Origin: Chiloscyllium plagiosum
Taxonomy: Eukaryota
Direction of reading: 5' to 3'
Assembly (NCBI RefSeq): GCF_004010195.1
Contig: NW_025214739.1
Location: 1-50,000, forward strand
Length of the DNA stretch: 50,000 bases
In this document: positions 1-43,673 of the stretch, one piece after another
How the letters are laid out: every line of letters begins with the position of its first letter
How positions within the stretch are numbered: position 1 is the stretch's first letter
Made by a program: the position numbers and the translations under genes
The notes under the pieces: generated by a model
The model's input: the letters and a program-made list of their open reading frames with translations, nothing else
Told to the model about the DNA's origin: nothing
Databases searched by the model: none

Positions 1-62
1 CAATTCAGTCTTTTATTTTTCTTTCCTTTTCCATCTTTTATCATTACTCAATAAAGGTTGTG

Positions 63-390
63 TGTGGCATGCTGGTTCATTGGTTAACACTGCTGCCTCA
101 CAGCACCAAGGATCTGGGTTTGATTCCAGCCTCAGGCGACTGTCTGTGTGGAGTTTGCACATTCTCCCACTGTCTGCGTGGGTTTCCTCCAGGTGCTCCG
201 GTTTCCTCCCACAGACCAAAGATGTGCAGGTTAGGTGAATTGGCCGTGCTAAATTGCCCATAGAGTTAGGTGCATTAGTCAGGGGTAAATATGGGGAATG
301 AGTTTGGGTGGGTTACTCTTCGGAGGGTCGGTGTGGACTAGTTGGACCGAAGGGCCTGTTTCCACACTGTAGGGAATTGAATCAAATCGA
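63..390 (+). mobile_element. HE1-like V-SINE (tRNA-derived)
   Basis: tRNA-like head (tggttaacactgctgcctcacagc...gggtttgattcc), V-domain (tgtgtggagtttgcacattctccc...ggtttcctcccaca), CR1-like tail (ggaccgaagggcctgtttccacactgta). Confidence 0.88.
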
Positions 391-929
391 ATGTTCATAT
401 TTAAGCAAATTGCTATGGTTGAATCTTAACTACATTTAACCGAATCTGTAAAGAACCACTTGGATACACCGTGTGATCCAAAACAGTTTTCTAAGTCTTC
501 TATGACAAAGACAGACATAAAGTACCTCGTTAATATCTGTCATGCTTTGTTTCCCATCATTAATTCCCCAAATTCACTTTCGAGGACCATCACTAGTTTT
601 CGTCACTCTTCTCTTATTTAAATGCTTGTAAGAACTATTTTTGTACTATATAAAAACCAAACAAACTGTGGATACTGTATATCAGAGACAAAAACAGAAA
701 ACTGAGGAGGTTCTGAGGAAGGGTCACTCAACCCAAAATGTTAACTCCGATTTCTCTGCTGCTCGACCTGCTGAGCTTTTCCAGTAATACATAGTTTTGT
801 CTCTGTTTTTATATTACTGGTTACTTCTCTCATTTTGGAACAAATGCTGACACATTCAGATGGAGAGCATTTAACTCTTGTCTTTCTACCATTTTTACAA
901 ACTGCATACTTATCTGCTGGTGTGCTTAA

Positions 930-1640
930 CAGTGCTGTCGGCATTTCTTAATGGTCATTTCTATTTATGACTCATTTTTAAATGATCAGTTTATTGCTTT
1001 GGCATTGTTTTTTATCACTTTTTTTACTCTTAATTGTTATTATTGAAATTTATGTTTAAGTTTGTACTCTCTGTCTCTTTCTAACCCCTAACACTATCAT
1101 TATTTCAGTTTAATACTACCTTTCTCTCTTACCGTTTTCCCTCTGCATTACTACATCTCTTCCCACAGGATCCCCCCCACCCCGCTCCTTTCCACCCCCA
1201 ACCTCAACACCACCACCACTACCCACACTGTTTAGTTTAACGTTTTCCCAACCTGAGTTACACGACTTACTGAGCCGATCAGGTAAAATGCATCTCCTAT
1301 TTCCCCAGTATAAAAGACCACTGATTCTCTCTGCACAGATGTCATAAGAGATGCTGAGCATTTCCAACACTTCATGTTGTGACTGCAGTGAAATACCTCT
1401 TTTGCCTGCTCTCCAAACAGCAGTCAGACTCCCTGTGAGTGTCTCAACTCCTTCAGCAAGAAACCCAGCAGCAGCTGCCTTAGACCTGGTTTGGCACAAC
1501 ATGAAACATAAATTTCAATAAAAAAAGTTAAGACGTAAAAAGTGTGATTTGCTGAGCCAAAAAAAATGCCAAACCAATAAATTGATCATTTTAAATGAGT
1601 CATAAATAAAAATGACCATTAAAGCATGCCAACAGCACTG
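930..1640. mobile_element. Candidate non-autonomous DNA transposon with ~130-bp terminal inverted repeats, flanked by TTAA
   Basis: 930-1057 is an imperfect reverse complement of 1504-1640 (CAGTGCTG...CAGCACTG); TTAA at 926-929 and 1641-1644. Confidence 0.6.
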
Positions 1641-3375
1641 TTAATTAATAAAATGCCTTTTGCTTCAGAAGCAGAATTAGGGAGAAAGACAGATCAGGCC
1701 CCAACTCAGTTGAGAAGTTAGATTTAATAGCATTGACCTGGTGTCCTCCTGTGGTGCAAATTCTAAACTGACCTTGGCGGAGTCTTTCAGTCTGTGCATT
1801 CCTCCACGTGCAATCCACTATGTGGATGGTTCACTTTGGAAGGGAAGAGGAGAAGGGCCAGAGTGTATATCCCAACATTGAGCAGCATCTCCAGGTCTCA
1901 GCATTCCCTTTCCCACAAACACCCAACACTGAGGGAAGACAGAGATCAGAAAACAACATAGGAACATAGAACCTGAAATAACTCCTGTGTGGGGCCCAGC
2001 CCCGGGACGACACTCCAATCAGGAAGGAGGGTTGGGAAAGGCCAGAGAAATGAGGCACTAGGCCGTTTCCTCTGACAGGCTTCATTCGTCACCTTGACAT
2101 GTTCTTTGCCCATTTCAAGAGCAATCTGCCATGCCATTTCAAGAGCTTTCATAGAATCTTCAAGCTTCAACGTCAATCATTGAATAACGGTTCCAACTAG
2201 TGCCGCCCTTCTCTTGTGTTCAGACCTGCACCTTGGCATGTGTATTCTTTTTCCAAAAGCCTGCTGAATGGTCCTTATTTGAAATTCTGTTCAACTCCTC
2301 TGTCACTAAGTCCGCAGCCGTGGGCTTCCAGCCCTTTCCCTCACATTGGAAATACCTACAGACGATTCTGTACCAAATTAAGTTGTCATTGGTCATCCGG
2401 TGGATTGAGTTGGTGACACAGCCAGCGGACAAGGATGGAGAAGAACGTGAGCAGCAGAACATCCGCTGCTAAGCTCTCAATAGTGGCTACAAGTCTAGTA
2501 CTCAATTTACCATCTTCTTTTCTCCAGCGACTGGGTGGCCCTTCAAGGTAGTCTCAAATTCCATTAATGTCCCACAGCGGCAGCCTCCAGCCCAGGCCTC
2601 TGCTTTCCACCACTGACTAACCCGTGCTATCCAAATGCCACCTGTTGCCATAGAAACAAGCCAGGCATATGGAGCTGGGAGGAGTGTCAGAGGCAGGTTT
2701 AAAAGCACAAAAAAAAACAGCCCGGGGATTAATTCCAGTGAATTGGGGATTCAATACAGAGAAGCTGATCCTGCACAGGAACCCTGCACTTCATTGGGGA
2801 CAAGGTGTGAGGGTGGGGGTGAGGACAGGCTGCTGAGAAACAGCTGCTGCCAACATTCCCTCACACAAAGGACAATGAGGCAGTCAAGATACAGGGTACT
2901 GGTGAAGCTGGTGCTTCCTGCTACTTGTCAGACCAGCAACATTCACTGACCAACTTGCCTATCTGAAATATAAGCATTGTCCGCAGCCTCCTGTCTCCCT
3001 AGGACTGGGCACTGTCTCCACGCCCCCAACCCCATCTACACCCCACCCCCTCCCAGGCCCTGGAGTTTTCTCGCTCGGCCGATCACTATCTGAACAACAC
3101 TAACCTAGTGGTTTTACTGTAATTAACCTGGAGCTCTTGTGGAGCTGTGGTAGTGTCCCGTTTCTGACCTGGGAGGCCCAGGTTCCAAAGCCACTTGCTC
3201 CAGAGCTGTGTCTCATAACAGCTCTTATCAAAGCTGATTTGGAAAATATCGAAAACAGAAGCTAGGGTTTTTGTGGCACATTGGTAGTATCTCTATCTCT
3301 GAGCGAGGAGGCTTGTGCTCATCTGCCATTTACTCCTGGCATGTCTAATCAGGTTGATGAAAACCAGTAGCTGAC

Positions 3376-3579
3376 AGTGTGGTGCTAGAAAAGCACAGCA
3401 GGTCAGGCAGCATCCAAGGAGCAGGAGAGTCAACATGCCAGGCATAAGCCCTTCATCAAGAAGGCTTACGCCCGAAACGTTGTTTCTCTGGTTCCTTGGA
3501 TGCTGCCTGACCTGCTGTACTTTTCCAGCACCACATTCTCGACTCTGATCGCCAGCATCTGCAGTCCTCACTTTCTCCC
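3376..3579. mobile_element. Short palindromic Penelope-derived insertion (inverted terminal repeats)
   Basis: Inverted arms tgtggtgctagaaaagcacagcaggtcaggcagcatcc / ggatgctgcctgacctgctgtacttttccagcaccaca; degenerate 21-bp duplication at 3355-3375 and 3580-3600. Confidence 0.8.
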
Positions 3580-3752
3580 TGATGAAAATTAGTAACTAAC
3601 CTCTTGTTAACTGGACCAGCCTGTGTGCCTTTGGCTGATGGACTGATTTTGCAGGAGTGTTCTAGCCAACGGTTAACTGAATAAAGTTCATTACAAGCTC
3701 AGAAGCTACTTTACTTCACAATAGGTGAATATGGAGAATCGATTGATAGAAC

Positions 3753-4600
3753 TTATAGAGTCTTAGAGTCATACAGCATGGAAACAGACCCTTCAGTTCA
3801 ACTATCCACGCTGACCAAGTTTCCCAAACTAAACTAGTCCCACCTGCCTGCATTAGGCTCATATCCCTCTAAACCTTTCCTATTTTTGTAACTGTCCAAA
3901 TGTCTTTTTAATCTTGTAACTGTACCTGCATTTACCACTTCCTCAGACTGTTCATTCCACATATTAACCTACTGTGTGAAAAAGTTGCCCCTCAGGTCTC
4001 TTTTCAATCTTTCTCCTCTCACCTTAAAAGTATGCCCCCTAATTGGAAAGACTTTTGCTGTTTACGTAATTCTATTCCCCTCATGATTTTACAAACCTCT
4101 ACAAGGTCACCCCTCAACCTCCAAACTGATGAAGGGCTCCTGCCCGAAACATTGATATTCCTACTCCTCGGATGATGCCTGACCTGCTGTGCTTTTCCAG
4201 CACCACTCTAATCTTGACTCTGATCTCCAGCATCTGCAGTCCTCACGTTTGTCCAGTGAAAGAAGTCCCAGCCTATCCAGCCACTCCTTATAACTCAAAC
4301 CCTCCAATCCTGGCAACATCCCGATAAATCTCCTCTGAACCTTCTCCAGCTTAATAATGTCCTTCCTATAACAGTGCCACCAGAACTGTACACAGTATTC
4401 CAAAAGTGGCCTCACCAATGTCCTGCACAATCTCAACATGGCATTCCAACTCCTATGCTTAATGGTCTGAGCAATGAAGGCTAGTGTGCTAAATGCCTTC
4501 TTAACCACTTTGTCTACCTGTCACACAACTTTTAAAGAACTATGCACCTGAACCTCTAAGTCTCTCTGTTAGACAACACTATCCAGAGACCTATCATTAA
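3753..4600 (-). mobile_element. CR1 LINE 3' fragment, interrupted by a PLE terminal repeat (about 4123-4251)
   Basis: Translates RTLVRPLLEYCVQFW...DIIKLEKVQRRFIGMLPGLEGLSY (CR1 ORF2 C-terminus); short tandem tail at the left end. Confidence 0.88.
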
Positions 4601-4635
4601 CTGCCTAGGGTAATGTGTACACTTCTGGAGTTTAA

Positions 4636-4945
4636 ATTAAGATTAGATTAGATTACTTACAGTGTGGAAACAGGCCCTTACGACCCAACAAGTCCACACC
4701 GACCCGCCGAAGCGCAACCACCCATACCCCTACATTTACCCCTTACCTAACACTACGGGCAATTTAGCATGGCCAATTCACCTGACCTGCACATCTTTGG
4801 ACTGTGAGAGGAAACCGGAGCACCCGGAGGAAACCCACGCAGACACGGGGAGAATGTGCAAACTCCACACAGTCAGTCGCCTGAGGCGGGAATTGAACCC
4901 GGGTCTCGGGTGCTGTGAGGCATCAGTGCTAACCACTGTGCCACC
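4636..4945 (-). mobile_element. HE1-like V-SINE
   Basis: Reverse complement of the same head/V-domain/tail, with an (AATCT)n tail; many CpGs retained, so a young copy. Confidence 0.9.
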
Positions 4946-5134
4946 ATATCCCTTTGCCTTATTATCCACACAACCTTTCTCTGGGGTTTCAACACCTATT
5001 TCTATTCTATTCATATTCTACTTCAAAACCTTGCCTGATCAGACAGCATTTGTATTGTTTCTCTCAGTGTTTTCGCGTTTGCTGTTCCCAACCAAAGCAA
5101 CTAAGACTTTTCAAAATGTAGCATTCCCCTCAAA

Positions 5135-5380
5135 CGCACACTCACAGACACACACACAGACACAGACACACACACAGACACAGACACACACACACAGACA
5201 CACACACAGACACACTCACAGACACAGACGCAGACACACAGACGCAGACACACACACAGACAGGCACAGACACAGACGCAGACATGCACACACACAGACG
5301 TAGACACACACGCACAGATGCAGACACACACACACAGACACACACACAGACACAGACGCAGACACACACACACACACACA
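5135..5380. repeat. Compound (CA)n/(CAGA)n microsatellite in SELENOM intron 2
   Basis: Continuous cacacacagacacagac-type repeats. Confidence 0.97.
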
Positions 5381-5613
5381 ATGTATTTATGCACTCCGTC
5401 TCAAATTTGCGATTGTGCCAAATTCTTCTGGCACAGAAGTGGCCAGAACTTGCTTCGAGCTGACATTCCAAGACCCTCATTATGGCAGTGTCTGTACTGA
5501 AGAAGCCCAGTTCACTGTCACGGGAAAGGAAGGCAGAAAGCATTTATTCACTTCAAAAACACTGACTACTCGATGGAAAACTGGAGAGAGACGAGCACAA
5601 GGAAAGTCCTTAC

Positions 5614-5649
5614 CTCTGTCAGGACAGATAACTGTCACCCGCCGCAGGT
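5614..5649 (-). CDS. SELENOM: Selenoprotein M, coding exon 2 containing the Sec (TGA) codon
   Basis: 36-nt exon with strong acceptor ttctcccttttccag| and donor GAG|gtaagg. Reads ACC TGC GGC GGG TGA CAG TTA TCT GTC CTG ACA GAG = TCGGUQLSVLTE, matching human SELENOM TCGGUQLNRLKE. TGA at 5635-5637. Confidence 0.93.
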
Positions 5650-5805
5650 CTGGAAAAGGGAGAACAATTAATCAGAGTCAATTGAACACGAAAAAATCTG
5701 CAACTACTCAAAGAATCTGAAACTATTTGAACGAAGTAACCGGCAGGAAGGTGAGATGGGAGGGTGATCCTCCCGTTATCTCCCGGGTTACTGTTCTAGC
5801 TTTAC

Positions 5806-5916
5806 CTCCACCCTGCCTCGGGCTAGTGTTGGCGGCTTCTCCAAATTGAGTTTGTAGCCGGACACCGCCTGGGTCAGGGTCAGGGTCAGGGTCAGCAGCA
5901 CCGGCGGCGGCAACAT
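5806..5916 (-). CDS. SELENOM: Selenoprotein M, coding exon 1 (signal peptide + start of mature protein)
   Basis: ATG at 5916. Translates MLPPPVLLTLTLTLTQAVSG-YKLNLEKPPTLARGRVE (37 aa: hydrophobic signal peptide, then LARGRVE, like human SELENOM LTRARVE). Ends at a phase-0 donor GAG|gtaaag. Confidence 0.9.
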
Positions 5917-5959
5917 GTTGCACAGATCCAGTGAGCACCAGCCCCCACTGAACAACTCC

Positions 5960-6160
5960 GCTTTCTGGCCCTCTATAAATCGTGCTTGCCACGTCAGGGA
6001 CTCCACCAGGGAGCATGGGGGAGGTGGAGGTCTGGGCTGGAGGCGGAGACTGAGATTGAAACTGCAGAGCCGCACTGTCCACCCGATTGGAGCCATCTCC
6101 AGATGGTAACAGGGAGTCAGATACAGGACGTTCCTGCCCATCCATTGGCCAACGAGTGCA
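5960..6160 (-). promoter_or_regulatory. Putative SELENOM proximal promoter
   Basis: GC-richer segment just upstream of the ATG. Contains an AT-rich TATA-like element (5974-5980), TGACGTGGC (5988-5996) and CCAAT boxes (6086-6090, 6144-6148). Confidence 0.55.
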
Positions 6161-8107
6161 GTCACTAAAGGGACACCTTCTACCAACTCTAGGAGTGCAT
6201 CTGCACAACTCAAAACAGCTAAGCTAAGGCCGAGTTAAACTAAAATAAAATGATAACAATTTGTGTCAATGAAAAATGTCCCATTTTCTAACCTTCAGAT
6301 GAATAACAAGTAACACAAATAAAAACTAGGTTTCTCAAGAACTCAGATATGAAGGTACCCAAACCTGGAAGTTCTCAATCTCGATCCCCAGTGGTGACCT
6401 CAGGCAGAATGAGCTTCCAGTGGGTCACTGTATCCAGAGGTTAATGACCTTGGTGACAATTCCTGCTCCCCTGTTCTGTTCTATTCTCCAGGAAGTGCGG
6501 GTGCTTCCTGAGTGAAGGACTGGAGCTGGGCTTTGATACAATGGAATTCCCTGTTAACCCAATGGTCAAAGCCAAATATGAAGCATGATACCTGGAAGTG
6601 GCACCAGAGAAAGTGACTACCCAGGGGATAGACTCAGAGGGAATTGGAGGATAACATTTGTCAGTCCCTCTCAGAAAACGGATAAAAGTATTAAAATTTG
6701 CATCGTTAAATGTTTTAAATTGTAATTATTAGTGACCTACATTTATATAGTGCTTTTCACACCCTCAGAACATCACAAAGTTCTTTAGAGCCAATAGGGC
6801 ATCCTTGTAATATAGAAAGTTCAGACACTAATTCATGCACAGTGATAATGACTAGGTAATCTGTTATAGTAATATTGGTTGAGATAGAGATACTGGTTAG
6901 GATACTATGGGAAAAAGGCACAAGCTGCTGGGATATATTATGTAGATATCTGATCTGCACTGAAGCATCTGAACTCAGCTGCAGGATCAGTCTGGGCCCT
7001 GTAAATGCTCTCAGCTCCCCAGGCAACACAGGGGGTAAAACAGCTGAATGGGCAAGACAACAGAGGGCAGGAAATTCCTGTCAATGTTCCAATGCAAGCG
7101 CAGAAGGGTGAAAAATAAAAACAAAGAAGCCCAGTCTGTGCAGCATGTTCAGATCTGTTCAGTAGTGAAATTGCATTTTGTGCAAGGACTAAAACAAAAT
7201 GTAACAATACAGGAGGACGTAAGAGGAGGAGTGGAGGTCACAGATATGACCTACGGCTAAAAATAAGTCTCAAGCTTGCAGTGCGCAAATGCTTGATGAA
7301 GGGCTTTTGCCCGAAACATCGATTTTCCTGCTCCTCGGATGCTGCCTGACCTGCTGTGCTTTTCCAGCGCCACTCTGATCTAAACTATATACTGCCAAGT
7401 GTTGTGCAGACATACAAAGTGGAAAATGTTCATATATTGGATTGTACCAAGTCAAAAGATGTCAGCTGGAATCCCACAGGATACTCTATCATTGGCCTCA
7501 GTACCACTGATTTAATCATGAGAGGGCAGGTTTCTTTTCTGGACCTGTGTTCAGAAATTCCTGCTGGAAGTGTGTGAATGTGGGCATTGCTCAGGACAGA
7601 AAGAAGCTCAGCTGTGAAGCTTCTATTGTTTGAAAAGCCCTTTGAATAATGTTATGGAAACGAAATAGGTATTAGTTGTGGTGTGTGGTCAAAAGCTCAG
7701 CCCAGGAACAATTACATCACGAAGGCCACACACAGACCTAATTAAGCTTAAATAGCTTCCATGGAGGGAGATGAAGTTCGTAATTACAGAAAAGAAAATT
7801 GTCATGGGGATCGAAGATGATGACTTTGATCTTTCCAATAATTAACTGGAGGTTACTTCTGCTCATCCAGTACTGAATCAGTATCAGACAACATATAGTA
7901 GAGAGATTGAGAGAAGTGGTGCTGAGGTGGAGTTGAGTATCAGGTGGAGACAGTTTAAACAGCTAGAAATTGATTCTGTGCTTTTTGGGTGATGTCCACA
8001 TGGATGAGTAATAGTAAAGTGTCAAACATAAATCTGTGGGGGACACCAGGGAGTAACTGTGCAAGATTAGGAAGAGTTACTGTTGCAAGTGTTACAGTTC
8101 TTCTAAT

Positions 8108-19069: not shown

Positions 19070-20428
19070 TCGGGAGAGTGATCCTGTCTCAGGGAAAGTG
19101 ATCCGGCCTGAGGGAGAGTGATTATGTCCCAGGGATAGTGATTATGTCTCAAGGAAGGTGATCCGGCCTGAGGGAGAGGAATCCTGTCTGAGGGAGAGTG
19201 ATCCTGCCGGAGGGAAAGTGATCTGGCCTGAGGGAGAGTGATCTGGCCTGAGGGAGAGTGATCCTGTCTGAGGGAAAGTGATCCGGTCTGAGGGAGAGTG
19301 ATCCTGTCTCAGGGAAAGTGATCCTGCAGGAGGGAGAGGAATCCTGTCTGAGGGAGAGTGATCCGGCCTGAGTGAGAGTGATCCTGTCTGAGGGAGAGTG
19401 ATCCTGTTTCAGGGAAAGTGATCTGGCCGGAGGGAGAGGAATCCTGTCTGAGGGAGAGTGATCCTGTCTGAGAGAGGGATCCTATCTGAGGGAGAGTGAT
19501 TCTGTGTGAGGGGGAGTGATCCTGTCTAAGGGAGAGTAATGAGTAATCCTGTCTGAGGGAGAGTGATCCTTTCTGAGGAGGAGTGATCCTGCCGGAGGGA
19601 GACTGATCCTGTCTGAGAGGGAGGGATCCTGTCTGAGGAAGAGTAATTCTGTCTGAGGGAGAGGGATCCTATCTAAGGGAGAGTGGTCGGAAAGTGATCT
19701 GCCCTGAGGGAGAGTGATCCTGTCTGAGGGAAAGTGATCCGGTCTGAGGGAGAGTGATCCTGTCTCAGGGAAAGTGATCCTGCAGGAGGGAGAGGAATCC
19801 TGTCTGAGGGAGAGTGATCTGGCCTGAGTGAGAGTGATTCTGTCTAAGGGAGAATGATCCTGTCTGAGAGAGGGATCCTGTCTGAGGGAGAGTGATTCTG
19901 TGTGAGGGGGAGTGATCCTGTCAAAGGGAGAGTAATGAGTAATCCTGTCTGAGGGAGAGTGATCCTTTCTGAGGAGGAGTGATCCTGCCGGAGGGAGACT
20001 GATCCTGTCTGAGAGGGAGGGATCCTGTCTGAGGAAGAGTAATTCTGTCTGAGGGAGAGGGATCCTATCTAAGGGAGAGTGGTCCAGCCTAAGGGAGAGT
20101 AATCCTGCAGGAGGGAGAGTGATCCTGTCTGAGGGATAGGGATCCTGTCTCAGGAGAGTGATCCTGTCTGAGAGGGAGTGATCCAGCCTAAGGGAGCGTG
20201 ATCCTGCTGGAGGGAGAGTGATCCTGTCTAAGGGAGAGTGATCCTGCAGGAGGGAGAGGGATTCCGCCGGAGGGAGATCGATCCTGTCAGAGGGAGATCG
20301 ATCCTGTCTGAGAGAGAGAGAGAGAGAGCGATCGTGCCGGAAGGAGAGCGATCCAGTCGGTGGGGGAGTGATCCTTCCGGGAGGAGAGCGATCCTGCCGA
20401 TGGGAGAGTGATGTGATCCTGTCGGAGA
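19070..20428. repeat. 20-bp minisatellite, consensus GAGGGAGAGTGATCCTGTCT (roughly 65-70 units)
   Basis: Direct tandem periodicity of 20 nt with variant units; units degenerate and gain CpG towards the right end. Confidence 0.97.
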
Positions 20429-20560: not shown

Positions 20561-20764
20561 CGGTGCAGTGATCGAACCTCAGGACAGACCCTGTGTGACC
20601 TTCCTGGATACAATATTACACCGTCTTTCCTGGATACTGCAAAGTGTGTTCATGCTGCATACTCCCCCCCCCCCCCCTTTAGGAGATACATTGACCTGTG
20701 TTTCTCTACCTCCTGAATATCTCTCACAATCTGTTATCTCTTGTTTCTCCGCAGTTCCGACAGG

Positions 20765-20856
20765 ATGAGCGCTGCTCTGATCCAGGAACAGCCAGCGGTC
20801 AGTTTTGGCTCCCTAACTGTGACAGAAACAGACGATGCTGGAGACGACGGGTTCAG
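20765..20856 (+). CDS. INPP5J: Inositol polyphosphate 5-phosphatase J, first recognisable coding exon
   Basis: Acceptor ttgtttctccgcag| (exon starts 20755), ATG with A at -3, MSAALIQEQPAVSFGSLTVTETDDAGDDGF+AG|gtgaga (phase 2). It joins in frame to the 43566 exon and resembles human INPP5J ...DPGFR-ITVVTWNVGT. Confidence 0.72.
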
Positions 20857-26438: not shown

Positions 26439-27080
26439 AGAGTCATAGAGTCATAGAGATGTACAGCATGGAAACAGACCCTTCGGTCCAACCCGTCCAT
26501 GCCGACCAGATATCCCAACCCAATCTAGTCCCACCTGTCAGCACCCAGACCATATCCCTCCAAACCCTTCCTATTCATATACCCATCCAAATGTCTCTTA
26601 AATGTTGCAATTGTACCAGCCTCCACCACATCCTCTGGCAGCTCATTCCATACCCGTACCACCCTCTGCGTGAAAAAGTTGCCCCTTAGGTCTCTTTTAT
26701 ATATTTCCCCTCTCACCCTAAATGTTTGCCCTCTAGTTCTGGATTCCCTGACCCCAGGGAAAAGACTTTGCCTATTTATCCTATCCATACCCCTCATAAT
26801 TTTGTAAACCTCTATAAGGTCACCCCTCAGCCTCTGACGCTCCAGGAAAAACAGCCCCAGCCTGTTCAGCCTCTCCCTGTAGCTCAGATCCTCCAACCCT
26901 GGCAACGTCCTTGTAAATCTTTTCTGAACCCTTTCAAGTTTCACAACATCTTTCCGATAGGAAGGAGACCAGAATTGCAGGCAATATTCCAACAGTGGCC
27001 TAACCAATGTCCTGTACAGCCGCAACATGACCTCCCAACTCCTGTACTCAATACTCTGACCAATAAAGGAAAGCATACCA
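26439..27080 (-). mobile_element. Young CR1 LINE 3' fragment (ORF2 C-terminus still open)
   Basis: ORF 26525-27109: LYRTLVRPLLEYCLQFWSP...LERVQKRFTR...RLRGDLIEVYKIMRG...FFTQRVVRVWNELP; (ATGACTCT)n tail. Confidence 0.93.
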
Positions 27081-27477
27081 AATAAAAAACATCTTGCTAT
27101 GTAATACATTTACAAACCTGAATATTGCGAAATGTAACACTTAAAGACATCAGCACTGATAAAGCTCTTGCTTTTATGACTGGCTCATATTCCCTGTAAC
27201 CAAAAGGCAGCTGAACAGGATTGACTTAAACAGATCAGCTTTCTTCTCCCTCATTATTTCTGTCCTGGTAAATTCAGGGTCTGGGAATGAAATCTGATTC
27301 TTCTAACCTTATAACGCTCGGTAATATATTGGGTGCATTTACCTACTACAACATCACAGGAACTAGGTGATTTAAAAATAATTTCAACATCCAGTTGCAC
27401 TGCCACGTTCAGTCTCTGTTGCTCTGACAATATAAATTCCTCAGAAACATTTGAGATGACAAGCAGTTTTTACTTTC

Positions 27478-43565: not shown

Positions 43566-43673
43566 CATGCAAATCATCACATGGAATGTTGGCACTGCGG
43601 TTCCACCCGATGATGTTTCTTCACTTTTGGGTCTGAATTCAGTTGATGCAAGAATTGACATGTATGTCATTGG
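43566..43673 (+). CDS. INPP5J: INPP5J exon encoding the start of the 5-phosphatase catalytic domain
   Basis: Acceptor ctaattttgacag|, donor GG|gtaagt, 108 nt, phase 2 to phase 2. Translates (S)MQIITWNVGTAVPPDDVSSLLGLNSVDARIDMYVI(G), the TWNV...D.Y.IG(LQE) motif of INPP5J/K. The head-to-head position with SELENOM, as recalled for human chr22, favours INPP5J. Confidence 0.9.

Follow-up and report, generated by a model that had tools for sequence, protein, structure and literature searches.

The window, by which we mean the whole 50,000-nt stretch analysed here (positions 1 to 50,000 of contig NW_025214739.1 from Chiloscyllium plagiosum), carries the beginning of a spliced gene on its minus strand and two coding exons of INPP5J on its plus strand (Table 1). 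The minus-strand gene is real and very probably the 5' end of an ordinary bamboo shark orthologue of SELENOM, in which an in-frame UGA is likely recoded as selenocysteine (Sec). A first-pass annotation of this DNA had described two minus-strand exons with canonical splice sites around a 156-nt intron, an arrangement that is confirmed by a sequence scan and by contigs from sequencing runs; its remark that the gene was missed by the open reading frame track is true, but trivially so for any spliced gene.

Table 1. Positions of the SELENOM and INPP5J features in the window (X1, X8 and X12 are sequencing runs).
Feature	Positions	Strand	Remarks
SELENOM exon 1, 5' untranslated part	5917..6005	-	Extent covered by contigs, which end at 6005 (X1), 6001 (X8) and 5960 (X12)
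SELENOM exon 1, coding part, 111 nt, 37 codons	5806..5916	-	ATG 5916; phase-0 donor GAG/GTAAAG
SELENOM intron 1, 156 nt, GT..AG	5650..5805	-	Skipped in contigs of three of four runs
SELENOM exon 2, 36 nt, CGG-TGA motif followed by QLSVLTE	5614..5649	-	Donor GAG/GTAAGG
In-frame TGA, codon 42, phase 0, putative Sec codon	5635..5637	-	Aligns with the second Cys of CGGC in the 2A2P chain
SELENOM intron 2, at least 5.6 kb, runs off the left end of the window	1..5613	-	Exon 3 outside the window
INPP5J first coding exon, ATG 20765	20755..20856	+	30/30 residues identical to the C. punctatum protein
INPP5J next coding exon, 108 nt, phase 2	43566..43673	+	37/37 aligned residues identical to the C. punctatum protein

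Four of 24 sequencing runs were compared over positions 5401-6300, of which X1 and X8 are RNA by program guess only, X12 is of unknown kind and X14 is RNA on record. Spliced sequence across the junction 5649/5806 had been set beforehand as a check on the gene model, and the contigs of X1, X8 and X12, which bear three organism labels, do cross it, skipping the intron with CT..AC ends, while X14, represented by four reads, has depth on both exons and no listed joint. Towards its 3' end intron 1 has a pyrimidine tract and a terminal CAG whose AG is the only one in the final 48 nt, and branch-point-like words occur at 5681 and 5675. The spliced contigs are unlikely to derive from a retrocopy, since those of X1 and X12 are at least 99% alike to the locus. 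Run X12 also yields an unspliced contig over intron 1 (5622-5835; depth 12.2 vs 21.7 for the spliced joint) with differences from the window at 5690 and 5740; this contig would represent pre-mRNA, intron retention or DNA.

Depth ends at the exon-2 donor in all runs except X8, which reaches 16 nt into the start of intron 2. The X8 piece covering 5598-5649 has four differences from the window at positions that are not given, most likely within this intron overhang. By hand comparison, the start of intron 2 (5613-5598, minus strand) matches the start of exon 3 at 11 of 16 nt and would encode VRTFL as against VKAFV; the likeness is probably coincidental, but it can lead aligners to draw exon 2 too long.

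The sequence scan found no ATG between 6005 and 5917 on the minus strand, and ATG 5916, the first inside the span of the contigs, is most likely the translation start. Further upstream on the same strand, outside the span of the contigs, are three ATGs (6141, 6096 and 6016), two of them in the SELENOM start frame and one in the second open frame described below, by which gene callers could be misled. Near the 5' contig ends, at 5996-5989 (minus strand), is the sole TGACGTGG of the window, which resembles an unfolded-protein-response element and would suit an ER gene. The coding part of exon 1 starts with a predicted signal peptide, which contains a Leu-Thr hexamer repeat, and continues with a segment ending in RGRVE. 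This N-terminal stretch is uncharged and moderately hydrophobic, with a 9-residue Kyte-Doolittle peak of 2.34, a value that describes hydropathy only. In exon 1 the X8 contig differs from the window by one synonymous change at 5845 and by six gap letters, and the gap fits one unit of the hexamer repeat.

The first-pass annotation had also reported that a second frame of exon 2 is open, and the alternative frame DLRRVTVICPDR does run open through that exon. Translation of this frame from ATG 6016 through DLRRVTVICPDR would give a product that needs no recoding, and the frame is open from upstream of 6016 across exons 1 and 2, but in the hand-read contigs a TGA closes it 17 nt into exon 3, its ATG sits 11 nt past 6005, where the farthest-reaching contig ends, Pfam gives it no match, and an exact look-up of its unspliced form in the protein collection found nothing; we consider it scarcely credible that this is the product of the locus. 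The related suggestion, that automated annotation might truncate or mis-frame the gene, is unproven: the other frame closes in exon 3, and the failure to find a protein with exon 1 in the database fits a missing annotation and also fits the limits of the search.

That failure extends across several searches. Exon 1 gave no match in the PDB, Pfam assigned no family to three short fragments, exon 1 included, and in the protein collection exon 1 matched none of 66 candidates of 75-2000 aa and neither of two of 81-259 aa, the word index covering proteins of at least 75 aa. A HMMER search of exon 1 against 50% representatives returned one unrelated repeat protein with no matched stretch, an artefact, and exact look-ups of unspliced open reading frames in the protein collection found 0/4 and 0/1. 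The gene may be missing or mis-modelled in shark annotations, or a low-complexity query of about 40 residues may simply fail; the neighbouring INPP5J, by contrast, was easily found in the same protein collection. Misannotation of selenoproteins is in any case general and already documented, one study giving the proportion that is well annotated as 11% in Ensembl, 5% in GenBank and 77% in RefSeq (PMC12822975).

The claim that exon 2 holds a TGA in frame within a CGG-TGA motif is confirmed at 5637-5635, and the codons Cys-Gly-Gly-TGA (5646-5635, minus strand) correspond to the CGGU redox motif of SELENOM if the TGA encodes Sec, as we infer. Taken alone, the Cys-Gly-Gly-TGA pattern is weak evidence for SELENOM; it occurs once in the window and is present in 8% of 200 mononucleotide shuffles. 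What lifts it beyond chance is the junction 5649/5806 in three of four runs, together with the match of the exon-2 frame to mouse SELENOM. Searched against the PDB, the exon-2 frame found mouse SELENOM (2A2P) as the top of four matches with an E value of 0.027, a score that is slightly flattered because the query ran into intron 2, whose first codons mimic exon 3. Over exon 2 and the first five residues of exon 3, 14 of 17 residues are identical to mouse SELENOM when the TGA is counted against the Cys of the PDB chain. After the TGA, three of seven positions differ (QLSVLTE here vs QLNRLKE in mouse).

To the left of exon 2, hand reading of the X1, X8 and X12 contig ends on the minus strand shows the TGA frame going on into VKAFV, the start of the next exon that had been expected from the outset, and these five residues are also the ones at the corresponding place in mouse SELENOM (2A2P). 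In the hand-read X8 contig the TGA frame is open across 15 exon-3 codons, the last residues being YHNL, and X1 and X12 differ from X8 in exon 3 at a synonymous Leu codon. A 20-mer from exon 3 has no match in the window at up to three mismatches, and splice-site and motif scans of the window gave no SELENOM-like candidate exon; exon 3 is thus absent from the window and intron 2 must span at least 5.6 kb. The X12 and X8 contigs, 2.3-2.5 kb in length, extend about 2.2 kb past exon 2, as against some 300 coding nt expected; either the 3' UTR could be long, or an overlapping transcript of the opposite strand could have been merged into the contigs. Human SMTN ends near SELENOM.

The alternative that the UGA is a true stop, in a transcribed, decaying copy that has no SECIS and yields a 41-residue peptide or a decayed mRNA, draws on the fact that any SECIS lies outside the window, on the divergence of the post-Sec residues and on the failure to find the full-length protein in the protein collection. 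Against it, at least 22 codons beyond the TGA remain open and SELENOM-like, the readable changes between organisms are synonymous or have lengths that are multiples of three, and the TGA itself has no listed difference across three organism labels, none of the four runs listing an alternative letter there. We therefore judge a true stop to be very unlikely.

Recoding of the UGA as Sec is the reading followed here, and the predicted SECIS would lie outside the window, so that Sec decoding is what we infer. An Rfam search of the window gave no matches. A crude SECIS pattern scan of the minus strand over 1-5613 tested 13 patterns, of which one, at 593 (-8.1 kcal/mol), passed a loose helix filter and was rejected as an intronic chance occurrence. 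By analogy with the family (PMC10668967), codon 42 would be read as Sec with the help of SBP2 and eEFSec bound to the SECIS predicted for the 3' UTR. Judging from the family and from hydropathy only, the protein would be directed to the ER by its N-terminal stretch, serving as signal peptide. We predict that the product is a redox protein of the ER with a thioredoxin fold, whose CGGU (Cys-Gly-Gly-Sec) site would, as in the family, take part in thiol-disulfide exchange in the ER lumen, cycling through a selenenylsulfide.

The neighbouring INPP5J bears on the identity of the locus. Its first two coding exons, both with canonical ends, are separated by a phase-2 intron of 22,709 nt, and taken together they agree with the Chiloscyllium punctatum protein at all 67 aligned residues and with the Hemiscyllium protein at 93-97%. 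A search with the second exon matched 14 of 17 candidate proteins, each of the 14 from a shark or ray; 11 are named phosphatidylinositol 4,5-bisphosphate 5-phosphatase A (INPP5J), two are named INPP5K and one is unnamed; the C. plagiosum INPP5J models begin further downstream than these exons. SELENOM and INPP5J are transcribed divergently, with a distance of 14,849 nt between their start codons. In pig, the gene order is given as SMTN, SELENOM, INPP5J (PMC10034349). The position of the shark gene beside INPP5J, as in pig, adds support for SELENOM identity, which the first-pass annotation had proposed and which is further supported by the 2A2P match and the VKAFV exon.

Among the known systems, the closest is vertebrate SELENOM as represented by mouse 2A2P, with which the shark locus shares CGGU after a predicted signal peptide, the residue identities given above and an adjacent INPP5J. 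It is unlike mouse in having SVL..T in place of NRL..K directly after Sec, and unlike vertebrate SELENOM in its low-complexity Leu-Thr signal region, its long intron 2 and the extent of the contigs past exon 2. SELENOF (Sep15) has a Cys-rich N-terminal domain, whereas shark exon 1 has no Cys, and to our knowledge bony-fish Fep15 (SELENOE) is without the partner Cys. SELENOF belongs to the same ER thioredoxin-like subfamily and has its Sec near the N-terminus, but CGGU is described as particular to SELENOM and SELENOF has CGU (PMC10668967), a motif that is not the one found here. SELENOE, compared by description only, is a fish selenoprotein of the same wider family that occurs in cartilaginous fishes (PMC13134290, PMC3316567).

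These comparisons leave a small chance of a diverged SELENOM-family paralogue, kept on account of the three post-Sec differences in seven from mouse. Under this unlikely reading the locus would be an extra copy or a shark SELENOE/Fep15 that keeps CGGU, with an active-site helix rebuilt by SVL in place of NRL and a SECIS up to about 2 kb downstream, and canonical SELENOM would lie elsewhere; were it true, the locus would supply a missing link from SELENOM to SELENOE, which is confined to fish. The lack of an exon-1 homologue in the PDB or the protein collection would suit such a gene, as would the reports of SELENOE in cartilaginous fishes (PMC3316567, PMC13134290), but the locus sits beside INPP5J like pig SELENOM, exon 3 opens with five residues identical to mouse SELENOM, SELENOM is described as single-copy (PMC13134290), and SELENOE is presented in two studies as no more than a distant relative of SELENOF and is given a separate search profile (PMC13134290, PMC12822975). 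An ordinary SELENOM orthologue also agrees with a survey that includes nine cartilaginous fishes and reports one Sec-bearing SELENOM per genome in nearly all vertebrates, both Chiloscyllium species being among its tree labels (PMC13134290), and with PMC3316567, in which SelM is reported from all vertebrates studied and Fep15 from the elephant shark.

Our literature searches found no match of Chiloscyllium with selenoprotein M and nothing on a Fep15 motif, exon structure or promoter. The part of the PMC13134290 supplement that was searched holds no QLSVL and no SELENOM or SELENOE sequence file, and the portions available of PMC5981252, PMC3473315 and PMC2375036 contain nothing decisive for the SELENOM reading. 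SELENOM is a known, near-universal vertebrate gene, and the locus matters little beyond annotation, where it cleanly illustrates a class of genes often mishandled by pipelines; the post-Sec residue changes would be of minor comparative interest should they turn out to be shark-wide.

Elsewhere in the window, a tandem array of about 62 copies of a 20-nt unit (19072-20412) stops just short of the GC-rich region that precedes the first coding exon of INPP5J. Three further regions (5137-5380, 4161-4520 and 26525-27109) consist of a CA-rich microsatellite and open frames, the latter resembling fragments of LINE reverse transcriptase.
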